Shown here: positions 4,463 to 61,555 of the stretch, in pieces
Numbering within the stretch: position 1 is the first letter of the stretch
Layout: every line of letters begins with the position of its first letter
Assembly (NCBI GenBank): GCA_041749335.1
Contig: JBGTBM010000007.1
Span: forward strand, 85,408-149,407
Direction: 5' to 3'
Length of the DNA stretch: 64,000 nucleotides
DNA from: Patescibacteria group bacterium
GTDB taxonomy: Bacteria > Patescibacteriota > JABMPQ01
Translations under genes and position numbers: made by a program
The notes under the pieces: model-generated
What the model was told of the DNA's origin: nothing
Databases searched by the model: none
Seen by the model: only the letters and a program-made list of their open reading frames with translations

Positions 4463-7400
4463 TTGGATATGTTTTTGAATATAAAAACACTAAGAATTAT
4501 CAAGAAAATATTTATCGCCGCTTTTTTTGGCGTTTTTTTATTTCCATTAATGATCAACGCGCAAGGCGGAGTGTGGGAAAATATTTTTCCCGGATCATTA
4601 AGTTTAACGGCAAATAATGAAGAGGTCGAAATCATTGAATACAAGGGAGATATTTATGCCGGGATCGGGGTGGGAGGCGAGTCGCAGGTTTATCGGTATA
4701 TAAGTGGTGATAATTGGGAGCAGGTTAATAAAAATGCGTTTGAAATTGATGTGGAGCGGGGAGTGGCGTCTATGGCCGTGCATAATGGATATTTATATGT
4801 GGGCGATCGGTTTGATTTGGGGGGCGGATTTGTATTGCGCACCAAAGCGCAGGGCGGCCCGCCTTTTACTGATTGGACCCAAGTGAATATCGGCGGGTTT
4901 GGCGATGTTAATAATCAACAAATATCCGACTTAAAATCTTTTGGCAGCTTTCTTTATGCCGCTACTAAAAATTCAATAACCGGTACGGAAATCTGGCGGA
5001 CGCAAGAGGCGGGGGGTCCGCCCTATACCGATTGGACGCAAGTTAATTTAGACGGTTTTTCTGATGTTAATAATGTAGATACGCCATTTTTAGGTATTTA
5101 CGATGGATACTTATATGCTTCTACCGGTAAATCTTCTGGCGCGGGCGAAGTATGGCGTACAAACAATGGAATCAATTGGTCGCAAGTGCAAACCGATGGC
5201 TTTGGGAATTTAAGTAATTATGCTATGTCGTCTTTCGGGTCTTTTGATAATTCACTAATTGTCGGCTCTGCAAATTTAAACGGCGGCAATTTATTTAAAA
5301 CCATAAACGGCACTTTTTGGAGCGTGGTGAATGCTAACGGGTTTGGCGACACCAATAATAAATCCATTTTCCCTTTATTAAGTATCGGGAATTATTTATA
5401 TTTAGGAACGGAAAATAATTCAGCGGGAGCGGAAATTTATCGTACCGGCGATGGAATACATTTTACTCAAATTAATTCATCCGGATTTGGCGACAGTTCT
5501 TATAAAAGTTTTAAAGCTTTGGAAAATAGCGGCAATTTGTTTATTAATGCCAGCAATTCCGGCGGAGGACAAATTTGGGTGGATTATCCGCCGATTCCCG
5601 GTAATTTAACGGCATCTCAAAATATTAATGACCCGAATAAAATTAATATCACTTTTTCCGCGGATGATCAAAATAAAGCGGACAATTTATTAGCGCGGAT
5701 TGAGTATAATATAGGCAGCGGCTGGAAAAAAGCGACCATCATGGTTAATGACGCAGAAACCAGCGCTACTTACGGCGATCCCAAGGTTAATAATTCGCAG
5801 GATTTTCAAATTGGCGATTCTTTGGGATATATCACCGCATCGACAGGATTAAATACCGTTAAGACAGTTTGGGATTACAGCGTGGATGAACCGAATGTCA
5901 ATACCAATAACGCGCAATTAAGGGTAAAGCTGGACGATCAAATTTTGGAAAGTTCAGATATTACCTCCAATCAATTTTCAATAACTTCAGTATTGCCGGT
6001 ATCATTAATAAAATCATATTCTATTAACAGTCCGGCACCGGCGCCGCCTGCCGACAGCGAGGATAATATTTTTATAACTTCCGCCGGATCTTTGATAAAA
6101 AATATTGGCGGCAATATCAATAAACTAACGCCGGGAAATATTTTCAATATTAACTATTTATTTTACGCTTATTTTGTTTTAGCAATTATACTAGTCATTT
6201 TTATTTCTATTTATTGGTTTTTAAAAAAACAATATTATTACCACTCCAAGAATAGATTACGCCTATCATCCGCCGTTTTTTTCTTAATTTTTAATTTGGG
6301 CTTATTGGGAATATTTTCGTTATTGCAGCCGGTTAAATATTTATCGGCTTCTCCTTACGATGTATTTCCGCGGGACATTATTACTTACCGCATTGAATAT
6401 AAAAATTCATCAAATCAAGACATTCATGATTTGTATATATTGGATGAAATTCCTCAATATTCAACGTATGTCGCAGGATCAATGAATTTAAATGGCGCCT
6501 TGATTACAGATGAACTGGATTTTGACTCCGGAGACTTCAATATCTCGAATCAAAATAAAGTAACATTTTATGTTGGATCGGTAGGAGCCAATAATTCCGG
6601 TTATGTTGAATTTAGGGTTCAGGTTAATGCCAATGCTCCCATGGGCGGGGTGATAGAAAATCAGGCCAGAGGAGCTTTTAATCCGGGGAATATCTTAATT
6701 ACCAGCAACATCATTCAAAATTTTGTGGTAGCTACCGGATCAATTTCCGGCAAAGTGTTTTACGATAACAACCGAGACGGCCAGATTAATTCAAATGATT
6801 GGGGCATTGAAAATGCGCAGGTGAAGCTCTATGAAGATCGGGACCATAATGGATTATTGGATACGGCAGTTGATTATTTTGTTGATAGTAAATCAACTGA
6901 CCAGAATGGTGATTATCATTTTACGGGACTTTCAGCGCAATATTATTTATTTTTTGTTGAAAGCTATTCTTTACCGTCGGGATATATTTTGACAACGGGT
7001 AATATTCCGGCCCAAGCGGTGCTTACGGCTAGCGACCAGCAATATCAAAATGCCAATTTTGGTTATTTTAATCAGCCTCAACTGCCGGTTACTCCCGATA
7101 TCCCGGTAATACCTTCCATTCCTTCCACTTTTGAACCTATCCCTGATAATACCCCTGACGATGAGCAAGAAGAGCCGCCAATTATTGAAGAAGAAGACGA
7201 GGAACCGATAGAAATTCCAGATCGAGAGGAGCCAATTGAACCAATAGAACAAGATAAGCCGATAAAAATTGAAACTGAAGACGTTAAGCCGATTGAAATT
7301 GAAAAACCGGATGAGCCCGGAATTGAAAAAAGAAACTGGCGGGATTATTTAACTTTTTCCCTGCCGATTTTTGCCGCTTTATCTTTAGCTAATTTATTTT

Positions 7401-8359
7401 TTAGCGTTCCCTTTTCCGCTTTGGCAAACTTTTTATATTATTTATTCCAGCTAATCACCCAGCCGTTTTTATTATTAACGCGTGAAAGAAAAAGAGAATT
7501 GGGAGCGGTGTATGATTCGTTAACCAAGCTGCCGCTTGACTTAGCGTTAGTCAGATTATTTGACAAAGACACCGGAAAATTAGTGGAAACCAGAGTTACT
7601 AACAGCAGGGGGCAATATTTGTTTGTCGCGGAAAAAAATAAACAATATTATTTATCTGTCCAAAAAGAAAATTATTATTTTCCTTCAAAACTTTTGGAAT
7701 TTAAGCCCGACGACGATGAATTTAAAAACTTATATTATGGTGGAATAATAAGTACGCAGGATCTTGAAAAAAATAATGGCAAAATTTCTAAAAATATTCC
7801 GTTGGATTTGGAGCGGGGGAAATCGTACGCAGCGGGAGTTCGACATAAAACAATTCAAACTGGAATTAATCAAATTGATGATTTGAAGTCAATGGATGAG
7901 GAAGCTAAATTAAATGAATATAAAAAAATTCGCAAACAATTTACCATAAAAAAAATCAGCCAGATAATCGCATATCTGGGGCCTGCCTACGGTTTATTGG
8001 TATTTATTTTAAATCCAAAGCTGATAACATTTATATTTTTAATTATACATATACTTTTATTGCTGCTATTTATGCGGCTGGCGCAGACTCGGGAAAATAA
8101 GTCCTGGGGAAAATCATTTGATTTGAATACTAAAAAGGGATTAGATAATTGCGTAGTTAGATTATTTGACCAGCAATATGGTAAATTGCTATTTACTACT
8201 TTGAGTAAATCTGATGGCCGCTATGGATTTTTGGCGGGGAAAAATAATTATTTAATTTCGGCGTACAGGGATTTTTATCGCATGCCTCAAGAAAAATTGG
8301 AGATACAAGGCCGGGAAAACGGTATAATTAATAAAGATATTGGACTGGAAAAAAAATAG
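4463..8359 (+). CDS. Giant (1298 aa) secreted/membrane-anchored multidomain surface protein
   Basis: N-terminal signal peptide. Five or six ~48-aa propeller-like repeats (GF.D.NN...LY..T.....G.E.WRT). A DUF11-like 'conserved repeat domain' (YRIEYKNSSNQD...YVAGSMNLNG). Three SdrD-B/Cna-B/carboxypeptidase-regulatory-like domains (DGQINSNDWGIENAQVKLYED..., LVRLFDKDTGKLVETRVTNSRGQYLF, VVRLFDQQYGKLLFTTLSKSDGRYGF). An acidic Pro/Glu-rich linker (EEPPIIEEEDEEPIEIPDREEPIEPIE). Several internal hydrophobic helices. Confidence 0.8.
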   Translation: MDMFLNIKTLRIIKKIFIAAFFGVFLFPLMINAQGGVWENIFPGSLSLTANNEEVEIIEYKGDIYAGIGVGGESQVYRYISGDNWEQVNKNAFEIDVERGVASMAVHNGYLYVGDRFDLGGGFVLRTKAQGGPPFTDWTQVNIGGFGDVNNQQISDLKSFGSFLYAATKNSITGTEIWRTQEAGGPPYTDWTQVNLDGFSDVNNVDTPFLGIYDGYLYASTGKSSGAGEVWRTNNGINWSQVQTDGFGNLSNYAMSSFGSFDNSLIVGSANLNGGNLFKTINGTFWSVVNANGFGDTNNKSIFPLLSIGNYLYLGTENNSAGAEIYRTGDGIHFTQINSSGFGDSSYKSFKALENSGNLFINASNSGGGQIWVDYPPIPGNLTASQNINDPNKINITFSADDQNKADNLLARIEYNIGSGWKKATIMVNDAETSATYGDPKVNNSQDFQIGDSLGYITASTGLNTVKTVWDYSVDEPNVNTNNAQLRVKLDDQILESSDITSNQFSITSVLPVSLIKSYSINSPAPAPPADSEDNIFITSAGSLIKNIGGNINKLTPGNIFNINYLFYAYFVLAIILVIFISIYWFLKKQYYYHSKNRLRLSSAVFFLIFNLGLLGIFSLLQPVKYLSASPYDVFPRDIITYRIEYKNSSNQDIHDLYILDEIPQYSTYVAGSMNLNGALITDELDFDSGDFNISNQNKVTFYVGSVGANNSGYVEFRVQVNANAPMGGVIENQARGAFNPGNILITSNIIQNFVVATGSISGKVFYDNNRDGQINSNDWGIENAQVKLYEDRDHNGLLDTAVDYFVDSKSTDQNGDYHFTGLSAQYYLFFVESYSLPSGYILTTGNIPAQAVLTASDQQYQNANFGYFNQPQLPVTPDIPVIPSIPSTFEPIPDNTPDDEQEEPPIIEEEDEEPIEIPDREEPIEPIEQDKPIKIETEDVKPIEIEKPDEPGIEKRNWRDYLTFSLPIFAALSLANLFFSVPFSALANFLYYLFQLITQPFLLLTRERKRELGAVYDSLTKLPLDLALVRLFDKDTGKLVETRVTNSRGQYLFVAEKNKQYYLSVQKENYYFPSKLLEFKPDDDEFKNLYYGGIISTQDLEKNNGKISKNIPLDLERGKSYAAGVRHKTIQTGINQIDDLKSMDEEAKLNEYKKIRKQFTIKKISQIIAYLGPAYGLLVFILNPKLITFIFLIIHILLLLLFMRLAQTRENKSWGKSFDLNTKKGLDNCVVRLFDQQYGKLLFTTLSKSDGRYGFLAGKNNYLISAYRDFYRMPQEKLEIQGRENGIINKDIGLEKK
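4855..5085 (+). repeat. Intragenic tandem DNA repeats (~150-bp period) encoding the propeller-like blades
   Basis: ggcggcccgccttttactgattggacccaagtgaat...gatgttaataat is followed by ggggggtccgccctataccgattggacgcaagttaat...gatgttaataat. Confidence 0.7.
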
Positions 8360-8591: not shown

Positions 8592-11484
<2,893 letters not shown>

Positions 11485-11752
11485 ACTAAAGCTTTTAAAA
11501 TCGCTTATATCGATGGCGGTTTTAAAGGTTTTAAAAATTGACTAGCGATTTATAGTTGTTATTAATATAATGATGAAGAATCAGCGAAGACGCGGTGTAA
11601 ATGATTAATTGAAAAAATGAATTTTAGGAAATTATTTTCTTCAGTAAAATTAATATTGGTTTTATTAATTATTGGAATATTCGTTTCAATTGCATTTTAT
11701 GTGACTTCGCTAAATTCTTTGGCGCACAATATATTTTAACTTGGCTGCAGCA

Positions 11753-11866
<114 letters not shown>

Positions 11867-29114: not shown

Positions 29115-29198
29115 TGTGGGGAGCGGTAGGGACTTTATTTTATGCAATATTGCTGTGGCGGAAAGTTAGACGAAAATTATCAATAAAAGCAGTAAAAA

Positions 29199-29340
29199 GT
29201 TACAAGGACACAAGATACAAGGATACAAAAATATTATAAATAAAGTCAAATAGTTGATTGTGGTTTAAATAATTTGACATAAAATAATTCAAGGAGGAAT
29301 GCATCAAGTAACAAGTGACAAGAAACAAGATACAAAAGTT
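29199..29340 (+). repeat. Heptad/octad (N)ACAAG direct-repeat arrays (two blocks)
   Basis: gttacaag gacacaag atacaagg atacaaaa (29199-29232) and caagtaa caagtga caagaaa caagata caaaagt (29305-29340). The second block overlaps the 5' end of the four-helix-bundle ORF. Confidence 0.7.
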
Positions 29341-29688
29341 CATCAATTTGATTTAGAGGATAGAACCACGGAATTTGCTAAAAGAGTGGTGAGATTATGT
29401 AGATTCATTCCAAAAGATTCTATCAATAATCGCTTGTCGGGACAGGCTGTAGGATCAGCCGGATCGATCGGGGCAAATTATCGAGAAGCAAATGATGCAC
29501 TGGGAAAAAAAGATTTCACGCATCGCTTACGAATAGCGCGCAAAGAAGCGAAAGAAGCAATTCATTGGTTAGACTTAATTGAAGAAGCTAATCCATATAT
29601 ATCTCACAGAATGAAAGAACTGAAACAAGAAGCAATCGAATTAAAGAATATTTTATCAGCTATAATTATTAACACGGAAAAGAAATAA
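29299..29688 (+). CDS. Four-helix-bundle protein (TIGR02436 / '23S rRNA intervening-sequence protein' family)
   Basis: LSGQAVGSAGSIGANYREANDALGKKDFTHRLRIARKEAKEAIHWLDL matches the family signature (Q..RSA.SI.ANIAEG ... A.GS..E). Confidence 0.7.
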   Translation: MHQVTSDKKQDTKVHQFDLEDRTTEFAKRVVRLCRFIPKDSINNRLSGQAVGSAGSIGANYREANDALGKKDFTHRLRIARKEAKEAIHWLDLIEEANPYISHRMKELKQEAIELKNILSAIIINTEKK

Positions 29689-29742
29689 TCTATAATCAAT
29701 ATATTTGGAATTTAAAAATTGAATTTTGAAATTTGTTTGTTG

Positions 29743-29776
29743 CTTGTATCTTGTAACTTGTTTCTTGTATAATACA
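29743..29776 (+). repeat. Inverted copy of the heptad array (CTTGTNN x4) ending in TATAAT
   Basis: cttgtat cttgtaa cttgttt cttgtat aat. This is the reverse complement of the upstream ACAAG arrays. Confidence 0.7.
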
Positions 29777-29779
29777 TTT

Positions 29780-57248: not shown

Positions 57249-58661
57249 TTACTTAAAAAATTTATATTTTAAATTTATAAAACCTTTTTCAAATTTTTTA
57301 TAGATGATGTTATTAAAAATATATTTTATTCTCTTATTGATGGGCTCTTTATCTTTAATATAAACATTGTAATAAAACCACTTAATTTGGTGCCGGATTA
57401 ATCTATTGTTAAAATTAGTATTTTTTAATATTGATTCTTTACGTTCCTTTATATTGATTAAATTATCTTTAATCAGATTGTTTTCTTTACAAAAATTGTA
57501 AAGATCGGTGCCCGGATAAGGATAAAAAACGTTCAACTGATATTCGTCTGGTTGACAAATTTTACATACTCTTATTGTTTCTTGGAAATTATCAAGTGTT
57601 TCTCTTGGTAGACCAATTAAGAGATAAAAATTTAAACGCAATTTATACTTTCTAGCTAAATTTACAACTTTGAATACATCTTCGTTTGTATAAAATCGGT
57701 TTAAAATTTTTTCTCGAATTTCTTTACTACCGGACTCTAGTCCAATATTAATATAATTAAAATTTGCCTTTTTAAAGTATGAAAATAATTCTTCATAGTT
57801 GATATTTGGAGCAATGCGAAGATTGACGCCATATTTTATATTGGGATATTTAAAATTAAAATTAATTAGATTTTGACATAGCTCAATCGCAAAATTCATA
57901 TCTATTCCAATTGTCTCAATTTCAAAATATATTTTTTTTAAGTTTGGGTTAGCTGATGTTATAAATTCAAGCTCAGACATTATATTGTTTACGGACCTTG
58001 CACGAACATATTTGCCATTTAAAACTTTTCTTAAAGCATGGTTACAGCAATAAGAGCAGGAAAATGGACAACCGCGTCCAAGTAGTATTACCTGAAAATT
58101 TTTATTTTGTGTTAGCCATTTACCCCAACTATTTCTGTCAGGAAATGGCAAGGAGTCTAGATCTTGGATCAAAATGTTTTTATCGTTTTTTTCAATATCT
58201 GTTTTGTTCTTTATCCATAAATTATTAATATTTGATATTGGCAATTTTTTATTTATTTTGTGACACAATTCAAGCATGGGTAATTCACCTTCTCCAATAC
58301 ATAAAGCATCAAATGGACTTGTTGTTAATATTTCTGGATTTAAGATAGCATGGGTCCCGCCAATAATATGAAAAATATCTTTTGTGTTATTTTTTATAAC
58401 CTTAGCAACTTTAGATATTCGATTATATTGACTAGCAATACTGGTATAACCAATGATTCTTGGATTAAAATTATTTATAAAATTTAATATATCATTTTTC
58501 GAAGTATTTTCAGTTATTGCGAGAATATCAGTTTTAAATCCATGTTTTTTTAAAAAGGATGAAATATATGATATGCCAAAATGCATTCTGGCTGGATTTA
58601 CCAGAGCCTTTTTTTCTTTATTGGGCTCATAATCTAAACTATATATAAATAATACTTTCAT
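57249..58661 (-). CDS. B12-binding radical SAM protein (class B radical SAM-like)
   Basis: N-terminal Rossmann-like cobalamin-binding region. GCPFSCSYCC (CX3CX2C). 4-nt overlap with uvrB. Confidence 0.65.
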   Translation of the reverse strand: MKVLFIYSLDYEPNKEKKALVNPARMHFGISYISSFLKKHGFKTDILAITENTSKNDILNFINNFNPRIIGYTSIASQYNRISKVAKVIKNNTKDIFHIIGGTHAILNPEILTTSPFDALCIGEGELPMLELCHKINKKLPISNINNLWIKNKTDIEKNDKNILIQDLDSLPFPDRNSWGKWLTQNKNFQVILLGRGCPFSCSYCCNHALRKVLNGKYVRARSVNNIMSELEFITSANPNLKKIYFEIETIGIDMNFAIELCQNLINFNFKYPNIKYGVNLRIAPNINYEELFSYFKKANFNYINIGLESGSKEIREKILNRFYTNEDVFKVVNLARKYKLRLNFYLLIGLPRETLDNFQETIRVCKICQPDEYQLNVFYPYPGTDLYNFCKENNLIKDNLINIKERKESILKNTNFNNRLIRHQIKWFYYNVYIKDKEPINKRIKYIFNNIIYKKFEKGFINLKYKFFK

Positions 58662-60634
58662 ATTTTTGATAATTTATTTCTAATTTCATCTATCTGATCG
58701 CGGAGTTCCGCCGCCTCCTCAAATTCCAGGTTTTGAGCATGAATTTCCATCTGATTTTGCATATTTTTGATAATTTCCAGCAATTCTTGTTTGCTGCGCT
58801 TTTCAATTGCTTTAAGATCAAGCTTATTTTTTGGCTTTCTTTCAGCCTTAATATAATCTTCACTAATAGCTTTTTTGATGGATTTGGGGGTGATGCCATG
58901 GCGCTTATTGTATGCTTCTTGATACTTTCTTCTTCTTTGAGTTACGCTGATCGCGCGTTTCATGCTGGAGGTTAAAGTATCGGCATACATAATAACATGG
59001 CCTTCTCGGTGGCGGGCGGCGCGGCCAATTGTTTGCACCAGCGCAGTCTCTGATCTTAAGAAGCCTTCTTTATCCGCATCTAATATCGCAATAAGGCTTA
59101 CTTCCGGTAAATCAAGGCCTTCACGCAATAAGTTGATGCCTACTATCACGTCATATTTGCCCAGGCGCAAATCGCGCAAAATCTCAATGCGATCCAGGGT
59201 ATCAATGTCGGAATGCAGATATTGCACCTTTATTTCTTGTTCAATTAAATATTCTGTCAGCTGTTCGGCCAATTGCTTGGTGAGAGTCGTTACCAGCGCT
59301 CTTTGGCCCTTTTTGACAGTTTGTTTGATATTTTTTATTAAATCCGGGACTTGATTTTGAGTGGGCTTGATTTCAATGGTCGGATCTAAAAGTCCGGTAG
59401 GCCTTACTAACTGCTGGGCTATTTGTTCGGAATATTCCAATTCAAATGGGCCGGGAGTGGCGGAAACAAATATCGCCTGATTAATTCTTTGTTCAAATTC
59501 GTCAAATTTTAGCGGGCGGTTATCCAGCGCGGACGGCAGGCGAAAGCCGTAGTCAATTAGCGTCTGCTTGCGGGATTGGTCGCCAAAATACATGCCGCGC
59601 ACCTGGGGAATAGTCATATGTGATTCATCAATAAAAGTAAGAAAGTCTTGGGGGAAGTATTCCATTAGAGTATTGGGAGCATCGCCGGTATTTCTATTGT
59701 CAAAATAACGGGAGTAATTTTCAATGCCTTTGCAGTAGCCGGTCTCTTTGATCATTTCCAGATCGTATTTGGTTTTTTGCTCCAGCCTTTGCGCTTCTAC
59801 TAGCTTATTTTGGGTTTTAAATTGAGCTACTCTTTTTTTTAGATCTTTTTTAATCTTTTCAATTCCACCTTGTTGGCGTTTGAGCGGAGCGATATAGTGG
59901 GTGCCGGGGAAAATTCTAATTTCCCGGGGCGCTTCCAAAACCTCGCCGGTAATATAATTAATCCAGGTTATTTTTTCAATTTGGTCGCCAAAAAATTCCA
60001 GCCGATAAAATTTATTGTCTGAATATATTGGGAAAATTTCCACCGTATCTCCGCGCACGCGAAAAGTTCCGCGGTTAAAAGCGATATCATTTCTTTGGTA
60101 TTGAATTTCGATTAAATCTCTTAGCAGTTGGTCGCGCCCTCTTTTTTCTTTTATTTTCAGGGGAATACTGTAGCGTTGATATTCTTCCGCCGGTCCCAAA
60201 TTGTAAATACAAGATACCGAGGCGCAGATAATTACATCCTGCTGCGAGAGCAAAGCGGAGGTGGCGGCATGGCGCAAGCGGTCAATTTCTTCATTGATAG
60301 CGGAATCTTTGTCAATATAGGTATCAGTTTGGGGAATATAGGCTTCCGGTTGGTAATAATCATAATAGCTGACAAAATAATGCACTTCGTTTTGGGGAAA
60401 AAATTTTTTAAATTCCGAGGCCAGCTGGGCAGCCAAGGTTTTATTATGCGATATCACCAAGGTTGGTTTCTGCGCTTGTTCGATAATTTTCGCCATGGCA
60501 AATGTTTTACCGGAGCCGGTTACGCCCAAAAGTGTTTGATATTTATGCTTATTTAAGCCTTGGGATAATTTTAAAATCGCCTGAGGTTGATCTCCGGTTG
60601 GTTTGAAACTTGATTGTACTTTAAATTTTGGCAT
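58658..60634 (-). CDS. uvrB: Excinuclease ABC subunit B
   Basis: LLGVTGSGKTFAMA (Walker A), YFVSYYDYYQPEAYIP, a beta-hairpin region, and the C-terminal UvrB/UvrC interaction helix (EFEEAAELRDQIDEIR). Confidence 0.95.
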   Translation of the reverse strand: MPKFKVQSSFKPTGDQPQAILKLSQGLNKHKYQTLLGVTGSGKTFAMAKIIEQAQKPTLVISHNKTLAAQLASEFKKFFPQNEVHYFVSYYDYYQPEAYIPQTDTYIDKDSAINEEIDRLRHAATSALLSQQDVIICASVSCIYNLGPAEEYQRYSIPLKIKEKRGRDQLLRDLIEIQYQRNDIAFNRGTFRVRGDTVEIFPIYSDNKFYRLEFFGDQIEKITWINYITGEVLEAPREIRIFPGTHYIAPLKRQQGGIEKIKKDLKKRVAQFKTQNKLVEAQRLEQKTKYDLEMIKETGYCKGIENYSRYFDNRNTGDAPNTLMEYFPQDFLTFIDESHMTIPQVRGMYFGDQSRKQTLIDYGFRLPSALDNRPLKFDEFEQRINQAIFVSATPGPFELEYSEQIAQQLVRPTGLLDPTIEIKPTQNQVPDLIKNIKQTVKKGQRALVTTLTKQLAEQLTEYLIEQEIKVQYLHSDIDTLDRIEILRDLRLGKYDVIVGINLLREGLDLPEVSLIAILDADKEGFLRSETALVQTIGRAARHREGHVIMYADTLTSSMKRAISVTQRRRKYQEAYNKRHGITPKSIKKAISEDYIKAERKPKNKLDLKAIEKRSKQELLEIIKNMQNQMEIHAQNLEFEEAAELRDQIDEIRNKLSKI

Positions 60635-60645
60635 TTAAATCGATT

Positions 60646-60736
60646 AACAAGGTGCAAGGTACAAGTAAAAAAGGTATAAAAGCACTTAAATTATACAATG
60701 CTTAATTATTTGAATCTTGTTTCTTGTAACTTGTAT
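60646..60736. repeat. Third copy of the inverted CAAGNNN heptad-array pair, in the divergent uvrB/ruvA intergenic region
   Basis: caaggtg caaggta caagtaa (60648-60668) and cttgttt cttgtaa cttgtat (60716-60736). The sub-motif cttgtttcttgtaacttgta is shared with 29750-29770. Confidence 0.7.
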
Positions 60737-60976
60737 TTTTAGATAATATTCATTATTCAAAATACACGATCTGATAAAGCTAACAAGCTAATTGCCTAGC
60801 ATAATTCATTCTTATTCCTTTATACTTCATAATTTTTGATTAATAATTTAAACACAGGATACAAAATTCAAATCCCTGTAAACCCAAAAACCCACAAGCT
60901 GCAATCCGGCCTGTCTATTGTCCATTGAAAATTGTGCATTGTTAAGAATACCATTTAACTTTATAATAAAAACAAT

Positions 60977-61555
60977 ATGATTACATATTTAAGAGGTAAA
61001 ATAAAAAAAGTTCGGGAGGAATTTTTAATTTTGGACGTAAATGGGGTAGGCTATCGAATTTTTGGCACCCAGCAGATGCTGCATAGTCTGAAAAATGAAT
61101 CCGGGGATGTGGAGATCTATACTCATCAGCACATCCGAGAAGATTCCCAAGAATTATATGGATTTTTAACTTTGGAAGAGCTGGAATTTTTTGAAATTAT
61201 TATTTCGGTATCGGGAGTGGGTCCAAGAATCGGACTGGCGATTTTGGAGATTTCTGGCGTGCCGGATATTAAAAAGGCGATCGCTACCTCAAATGTTGAT
61301 TACCTGACTCGGGTGCCCGGCATTGGTCGAAAAAAAGCGGAATTGATTATATTAAATTTAAAAAGCAAAATGGATGTTTTGGTAGGAGGGGACGGTTTGA
61401 ATTTATCCAATGATGATTCTGATTCGGTCAATGCTCTAATCCGCTTGGGATATAACAGAAACGAAGCGTTGGAGGCGCTGGAAAGCGTACCGCAAGATGT
61501 AAAAGACGCCGGTGAGCGCATTAGGCTGGCCTTAAGGAATATTGGCAAGAAATAA
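60977..61555 (+). CDS. ruvA: Holliday junction branch-migration complex subunit RuvA
   Basis: MITYLRGKI...LILDVNGVGYRIF (OB-fold domain I), helix-hairpin-helix motifs (SGVGPRIGLAILE, VPGIGRKKAELII), C-terminal domain III. Confidence 0.85.
   Translation: MITYLRGKIKKVREEFLILDVNGVGYRIFGTQQMLHSLKNESGDVEIYTHQHIREDSQELYGFLTLEELEFFEIIISVSGVGPRIGLAILEISGVPDIKKAIATSNVDYLTRVPGIGRKKAELIILNLKSKMDVLVGGDGLNLSNDDSDSVNALIRLGYNRNEALEALESVPQDVKDAGERIRLALRNIGKK

Follow-up and report, generated by a model that had tools for sequence, protein, structure and literature searches.

Inverted heptad arrays between uvrB and ruvA

The spacer between uvrB and ruvA in the 64,000-nucleotide stretch of DNA analysed here (hereafter the window) carries, on its uvrB side, two short arrays of degenerate heptanucleotides that face each other as inverted repeats (site 2; table 1). 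The left arm starts at a distance of 10 nt from the start codon of uvrB, which occupies 60632-60634 on the minus strand, and TRF reports a period of 7 at 60647-60665. The heptads that a preliminary description of this DNA had singled out, caaggtg-caaggta-caagtaa at 60648-60668 and cttgttt-cttgtaa-cttgtat at 60716-60736, are indeed present, and the distance between them, put there at ~45 bp, measures 47 nt. Arms and loop together fold into a hairpin of -22.4 kcal/mol (z = -3.2 for the plus strand and -2.3 for the minus strand), the 4-bp helices of which are broken every 7 nt; on paper, the hairpin would make a poor RNase III substrate.

Table 1. Genes, arms and arm remnants at the two sites of the window.
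Feature	Position	Strand	Remarks
Site 1, whole insert	29115-29779	+	bounded by comparison with the empty orthologous site of L088
Site 1, extra outer CAAG-type array	29197-29228	+	repeat search (D2, D9) and TRF; read as a solo left arm
Site 1, four-helix-bundle gene	29299-29688	+	129 aa; PF05635 23S_rRNA_IVP, TIGR02436
Site 1, left arm	29302-29336	+	CAAG heptads; lies within the 5' end of the ORF
Site 1, right arm, inner part	29703-29739	+	ATTTGAA-type heptads; ends in the pivot motif ATTTGTTTG (29731-29739)
[quoted passage not shown]
uvrB	58658-60634	-	flanking gene; Pfam UvrB_inter, UvrB, Helicase_C, UVR
Site 2, left arm	60645-60668	+	three degenerate heptads, ACAAGGT GCAAGGT ACAAGTA
Site 2, spacer (loop)	60669-60708	+	small internal hairpin, without coding capacity
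Site 2, right arm	60709-60736	+	TTTGAAT CTTGTTT CTTGTAA CTTGTAT
Solo arm remnant, other cassette type	60748-60771	+	ATTC heptads attcattattcaaaatacacgatc
Degenerate ATTC-type heptads	60800-60835	+	cataattcattcttattcctttatacttcataattt; read directly from the sequence
Left-arm-type remnant	60852-60900	+	acacaggatacaaaattcaaatcc...aaacccacaag; matches 29208-29230
ATTG heptad array	60917-60945	+	four units; the last is the -35-like hexamer of the predicted ruvA promoter
ruvA	60977-61555	+	flanking gene; Pfam RuvA_N, HHH_5, RuvA_C

The pattern CTTGN3CTTGN3CTTG, searched for on both strands of the 64 kb with at most one mismatch, has nine matches, all of which fall at 29305-29336, 29736-29767, 60648-60665 and 60709-60733, against a mean of 0.13 and a maximum of 2 in dinucleotide-preserving shuffles. 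AT-rich composition, the circumstance that the preliminary description had itself named as fatal to its reading, thus does not explain the heptads. A broader reading, that chance or slippage in AT-rich DNA generated simple sequence at two unrelated sites, could appeal to the 35% G+C content of the genome and to the many kinds of heptad array that are common in metagenomes. We regard it as very improbable, considering that the excess of matches is confined to two sites, that the arms pair in inverted orientation at both of them, that 60709-60734 agrees with the opposite-strand arm 29311-29336 in 24 of 26 positions (the strongest match between the sites), and that the arrangement recurs in dozens of homologous loci. 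The relationship of the two sites is nevertheless looser than had been proposed: the 20-mer cttgtttcttgtaacttgta, said to be common to 29750-29770, occurs exactly at 60716-60735 only, and its best same-strand match at site 1 (29743-29762) is 18/20, as the same three heptads are ordered differently there.

Between the site-2 hairpin and ruvA lie four further heptad arrays that had previously been missed (table 1). The ATTC arm at 60748-60771 resembles, when read by eye, the right arm of a cassette in a related genome (locus L086; ttcattcttcaaaatacattattcat) and a solo arm in another (L090), and it is conserved in the closest relative of the window genome (L081). The segment 60854-60873 is 85% complementary to 60708-60727. 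The ATTG array nearest to ruvA is conserved in L081 as well, together with the predicted ruvA promoter into which it runs (TTGTTA-17-TATAAT, 60939-60967). As far as can be judged from the sequence, the spacer beyond the hairpin is a patchwork of further arm remnants. The promoter-like element ends 9 nt before the ruvA ATG, a position that suggests a nearly leaderless ruvA mRNA. No intrinsic terminator was detected at site 1 or site 2, promoter-like matches at the two sites are not above those in shuffled sequences, the good ruvA candidate notwithstanding, and Rfam returned nothing at either site except a chance match to a microRNA precursor far below threshold.

A gene-bearing counterpart at site 1

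The CTTG array at site 1 has an inverted CAAG partner at 29305-29336, 399 nt apart, and a gene lies between the two; neither the partner nor the gene was noticed in the preliminary description. The inverted repeat (I1) is 32 nt long and 84% complementary to 29736-29767, and TRF reports a period of 7 at 29305-29335 and 29703-29768. The protein encoded between the arms belongs to the four-helix-bundle family (Pfam E = 4e-17, NCBIfam E = 1e-22), with PDB entry 2rld as the nearest solved structure (E = 1e-15). It has a pI of 9.4, its close homologues are named as proteins of Patescibacteria (CPR), and no relative of it was found in viral contigs. The neighbours of the insert, a membrane protein gene and a sugar-transferase gene, are part of a polysaccharide gene cluster.

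The start codon position used by homologues (MHKFDLE...) is occupied at site 1 by GTT (29338-29340), so that the ORF reads through the heptad array; the ORF may be decaying. Strong Shine-Dalgarno sequences are few in the window; this gene has one, AAGGAGG, which is separated from the ATG at 29299 by just 1 nt. Shine-Dalgarno-like motifs precede 7 of the 46 genes between 12000 and 62583, despite the CCUCC at the 3' end of the 16S rRNA.

Some other features of the window may be recorded here. The rRNA genes are split: the 16S rRNA gene ends at 973, the 23S rRNA gene occupies 8594-11486 and the 5S rRNA gene 11754-11866, and the 7.6 kb between the 16S and 23S genes contain three tRNA genes and ORFs, including one of 1298 aa (4463-8359). 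Directly after the 3' end of the 16S rRNA, a small CAAT/ATTG heptad palindrome, gataatcaataatcaattttattgataattggtc, is found at 978-1012, and the segment 4234-4297 contains four heptads of the ACTTTAG type and, after them, a hairpin with a T-run that resembles a terminator.

The two sites in related genomes

Site 2 is represented at the same uvrB-ruvA position in L082, a relative whose RuvA is 72% identical, with both arms present. In the much closer relative L081 (RuvA identity 94%), the left arm and the loop are kept, and ~48 nt including the right arm are absent. The loop is conserved in comparison with L081 but not with L082, and the distance of the left arm from the start of uvrB is 8-14 nt across three relatives.

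The orthologous spot for site 1 is the space between a gene for a 121-aa membrane protein and the sugar-transferase gene, and its contents differ from genome to genome. In L088 it is empty, the two genes standing 4 nt apart. In L086 it holds a different TIGR02436 gene with GAAT/ATTC arms, and in L090 a third TIGR02436 gene with AGAT/ATCT arms, accompanied by solo arms of the ATTC type and of the CTTG type seen in the window as well as by TAACTGA-like units. In BLASTP comparisons, the site-1 protein of the window is 25% identical to the L090 protein, and no significant match is obtained with that of L086. Cassettes appear and disappear at this single intergenic spot. The TAACTGA-type heptads of L090, a CPR relative of the window genome, are situated at 690-815, just upstream of the sugar-transferase start. 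At the L086 spot, a tandem duplication of ~115 nt can be recognized by eye upstream of the four-helix-bundle gene (2290-2575), each copy with a GGAGG motif and the start of a short ORF.

The same architecture around homologous genes

We surveyed 80 loci encoding relatives of the site-1 protein in species-representative genomes, belonging to Patescibacteria, Omnitrophota and assemblies labelled as several other phyla; most of these loci come from metagenome-assembled genomes. Most of the homologous genes have a heptad array upstream and a complementary array downstream. The inverted complementarity of the flanks lies above every shuffle in 59 of 75 loci (median score 41 vs 18), and for 62 of the 75 genes it is above the 95th percentile of a control set, 143 other genes in these loci. 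Aligned in register, the two arms have an identity of 0.73, which drops to 0.55 when they are shifted by 7 nt and to 0.47 at 14 nt, against a baseline of 0.33. They are genuine inverted repeats, with a period of 7 nt.

The core words of the heptads vary from locus to locus and agree between the two arms of a locus, the pairs encountered being CAAG/CTTG, CAAT/ATTG, CCAA/TTGG, CTAA/TTAG and AAAT/ATTT. The pivot motif that splits the right arm into an inner and an outer array occurs in 31 of 87 downstream arms, compared with a background of 0.03 per 130 nt, and at nine loci anchored on it the arms of one locus are more similar to each other than to arms of different loci (0.65 vs 0.46; permutation p = 2e-4). 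Half of the heptad arrays detected in 514 kb (99 of 198) are no more than 200 nt away from a four-helix-bundle gene; by our estimate, such flanks make up ~12% of that sequence. The cassettes tend to fill the intergenic space and to be co-oriented with both neighbours (49 of 63), and the architecture stays unchanged among neighbour genes that are functionally unrelated across loci.

This independence from gene context bears directly on the idea, raised in the preliminary description, of an SOS-like box, i.e. a LexA-type operator common to DNA-repair promoters. The position of site 2 between uvrB and ruvA is what would recommend it; site 1, however, belongs to a polysaccharide cluster and encloses a four-helix-bundle gene, homologous genes have the same arrays at their sides whatever their neighbours, the close relative L081 lacks one arm of site 2, and the motif is a tandem array of 7-mers rather than a single spaced palindrome. 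The probability that we would assign to such an operator is close to nil.

Inverted heptad pairs without a gene between them exist in other genomes; those of L007, L038 and L060 form long hairpins (z = -5 to -9). Homologous genes are also carried by plasmids, and of 14 plasmid copies inspected, 11 have inverted heptads, one has direct arrays and two are unclear; the copies with inverted heptads come from Nostoc, Calothrix, Geminocystis, Stanieria, Picosynechococcus, Anabaena, Trichormus, Riemerella and Azospirillum. The exception, on a Pseudanabaena plasmid (L211), has ~16 CTAAAAG units upstream of the gene and nine CCAAAAG units downstream, in direct orientation. On this and two other cyanobacterial plasmids (L224 and L225), the four-helix-bundle genes and their heptad arrays sit inside or beside cas operons, namely between cas6 and cas4, between cas10 and cmr3, and next to cas4, a placement that fits an earlier count of 18 four-helix-bundle genes in cas loci (PMC3936711).

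The converse association is much weaker. Among metagenome loci selected for four perfect CTTGTNN units, 3 of 120 have a four-helix-bundle gene, and an inverted partner within 900 nt was found for 15 of 131 arrays, which are mostly long simple arrays from many phyla. Long heptad arrays thus have a broader distribution than the cassette and are not to be equated with it.

A discrete unit in unrelated contexts

Nucleotide-level comparisons delimit the cassette sharply. The loci L015, L024 and L017 share 82-83% identity over ~490 nt only, and L050 and L056 share 88% over 515 nt; the flanks of L015 and L024, like those of L050 and L056, are unrelated even by tblastx, and the homology breaks off abruptly at AAATAACCAAG...CTTGGTTATTT. 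What emerges is a discrete unit, ~0.5 kb long, that recurs in genomic surroundings unrelated to one another and, to judge from these comparisons, is apparently mobile. No excision junction was found.

Such behaviour invites comparison with a classical MITE, a non-autonomous element mobilized in trans by a transposase that recognizes its terminal inverted repeats. Of the proposals made in the preliminary description, that of a MITE-like hairpin comes closest to the evidence: site 2 is small, has inverted termini that fold into a hairpin and no coding capacity, and has the appearance of a gene-less inverted-repeat derivative, related copies exist at two sites of the window, and the full-length relatives differ by presence and absence and have discrete boundaries. 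Other observations do not fit a classical MITE. The gene-carrying form encodes the small helical protein as its sole product and no transposase, and no target-site duplication flanks the three well-defined insertions (L015, L024 and L017), site 1 offering only an uninformative TAAT. Furthermore, the two copies in the window have diverged (18/20 at best on the same strand), and site 2 is old and positionally conserved. A classical MITE therefore appears quite unlikely to us.

The arms were also inspected for traces of selection at the RNA level. In non-rRNA copies, mismatches of the G:U type (74) are not in excess over those of the A:C type (88), which gives no indication of selection for an RNA stem in these copies. 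The absence of a wobble bias accords with arms that are maintained or copied as DNA.

Interpretation

We consider it probable that the segment 60645-60736 is an ORF-less miniature or remnant of a foldback cassette of the type of the rRNA intervening sequences (IVSs). The full-length form of this cassette, ~0.5 kb in size, would consist of a PF05635/TIGR02436 gene bracketed by two inverted arrays of degenerate heptanucleotides, and site 2 would have been derived from it by loss of the gene, unless it represents a gene-free form of the element. It would have resided beside the uvrB start since before the split from the relative with 72% RuvA identity (L082), and would now be decaying. When transcribed, the arms could form an imperfect hairpin such as RNase III cuts in rRNA-borne versions. 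Site 2 is, on this evidence, presumably not a dedicated DNA-repair operator.

The four-helix-bundle protein is a candidate partner of the arrays, given its tight association with cognate arrays, its basic pI and the binding of nucleic acids by its homologue Avd. The same properties of the protein family, and the way in which the core word tracks the cassette, can be invoked for a different reading, according to which the heptad arrays are cis-regulatory binding sites on RNA or DNA for a protein, possibly the four-helix-bundle pentamer, and tune the transcription or translation of uvrB, ruvA and the sugar transferase, with the arrays around the gene being autoregulatory. Arms are commonly found directly in front of the next gene's start codon, and Shine-Dalgarno sequences are rare in this genome (7/46 genes). 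In three relatives the left arm of site 2 stays at 8-14 nt from the start of uvrB; the conservation of its position as far as L082 could reflect function rather than mere persistence. There are precedents, too: heptamer repeats near the starts of recF and recO in Nostoc change expression (10.1101/2022.06.06.494920), paired heptanucleotide arrays of Geobacter have been proposed as sites of a global regulator (PMC2700814), and the TAACTGA repeats of Beggiatoa have been proposed to act on translation (PMC4679880). Against this reading, L081 does without the right arm of site 2 and L088 without the entire site-1 insert, the neighbour genes have unrelated functions at different loci, and a 7-bp period does not put the sites on one face of a duplex. 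On balance we hold regulation of this kind to be unlikely as the explanation of the arrays. The more specific version put forward in the preliminary description, an operator shared by two promoter regions and recognized by a winged-helix or response-regulator-type protein, finds no support in that form: the site-1 arms bracket a gene and are not a promoter operator, the losses just mentioned (the insert in L088, the right arm in L081) affect both sites, and the same architecture surrounds homologous genes with unrelated neighbours.

Returning to the foldback cassette, a more far-reaching interpretation can be entertained, although we regard it as rather doubtful at present. PF05635 genes with inverted heptad arrays may form a widespread and so far unrecognised class of small mobile foldback cassettes, which might be the common source of ORF-bearing 23S rRNA IVSs, of many STRR-type arrays and of gene-less hairpins; the basic, ring-forming protein might recognise 7-nt units on RNA or single-stranded DNA, each type of cassette having its own core word.

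The origin and mobility of rRNA IVSs, the role of S23-type proteins outside diversity-generating retroelements (DGRs) and the abundance of heptanucleotide repeats have stood apart as puzzles for ~30 years. The evidence presented here ties the IVS, the "four helix bundle / S23 ribosomal" protein and the heptad repeats to one architecture. Sharply bounded cassettes, empty sites and gene-less derivatives are now available as material, and the binding of the protein to the repeats, the processing of operon transcripts by RNase III and the mode of movement are directly testable. As regards genome annotation, heptad arrays next to start codons should not be taken for operators by default, and the presence of an IVS-type cassette should be checked first.

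Comparison with known systems

The architecture described above is common to most of the homologous genes in several phyla and to a 23S rRNA intervening sequence. The IVSs known from Leptospira and Coxiella burnetii contain an ORF of the same family as the site-1 gene (PF05635/S23p), and they have terminal inverted repeats that pair into a stem, as do the arms of site 1 (32 nt, 84%) and site 2 (z = -3.2). In Coxiella, the terminal inverted repeats are cut by RNase III, and three tandem GACAGAT heptamers, the copy number of which varies among strains, precede the ORF (PMC4990558). A link between the two settings is provided by a plasmid of Azospirillum lipoferum, on which a four-helix-bundle ORF (an unannotated tblastn match) lies inside an LSU rRNA gene (Rfam, 531 bits) and is flanked by inverted heptads, GAGGACG.../...CCGTCCT; its location makes this copy a classical intervening sequence. 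Short ORF-less IVSs are known from rRNA (10.1101/2024.02.27.582315), and site 2 is likewise devoid of an ORF. The differences are that IVSs occupy helix 25 or 45 of the 23S rRNA, whereas both sites of the window are located between protein-coding genes, that excision by RNase III, a feature of rRNA IVSs, would be a candidate process only for the arms in the window, and that the arms have no wobble-pair bias. The 23S rRNA gene of the window itself contains no insert and matches the Rfam model over its full length.

A second likeness is to the tandem heptanucleotide repeats (STRR; TAACTGA repeats of Beggiatoaceae, Cyanobacteria and Bacteroidetes; arrays of Geobacter metallireducens), which are intergenic and comprise 3-8 units of 7 nt. 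The arrays of the window are, according to TRF, head-to-tail intergenic 7-nt units of this sort, and units of the TAACTGA type occur in L090 at the spot orthologous to site 1. The heptads flanking four-helix-bundle genes on the Nostoc and Calothrix plasmids are of a kind that we take to be typical of cyanobacterial STRR. Reported heptanucleotide arrays often end at a start codon, and related units are mixed in them (PMC4679880, PMC2700814). The published arrays are, however, mostly direct repeats with no link to a gene family, while those described here are inverted pairs around a PF05635 gene or left over from one. In the open-access literature we found no link of non-rRNA PF05635 genes to inverted heptad arrays; an earlier description may nonetheless exist.

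With foldback elements and MITEs, and with the REPIN-RAYT system, the cassettes share short hairpin-forming repeats without coding capacity alongside a gene-carrying version with the same repeats. The arms of foldback elements, too, are built of tandem sub-repeats. The cassettes differ from all of these in that they have no DDE or HUH transposase and no target-site duplication, their cargo being a small helical protein. Integron attC sites were considered as well; neither an integrase nor a RAYT gene was noticed beside the cassettes. The protein superfamily is the one to which Avd, the accessory protein of DGRs, belongs. Beside the site-1 gene, with its membrane-protein and sugar-transferase neighbours, no reverse transcriptase and no pair of template and variable repeats was noticed. 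PF05635 has been reported to resemble Avd (PMC10053308), and the protein encoded at the L086 locus is a weak match to the Avd model of DGRs.
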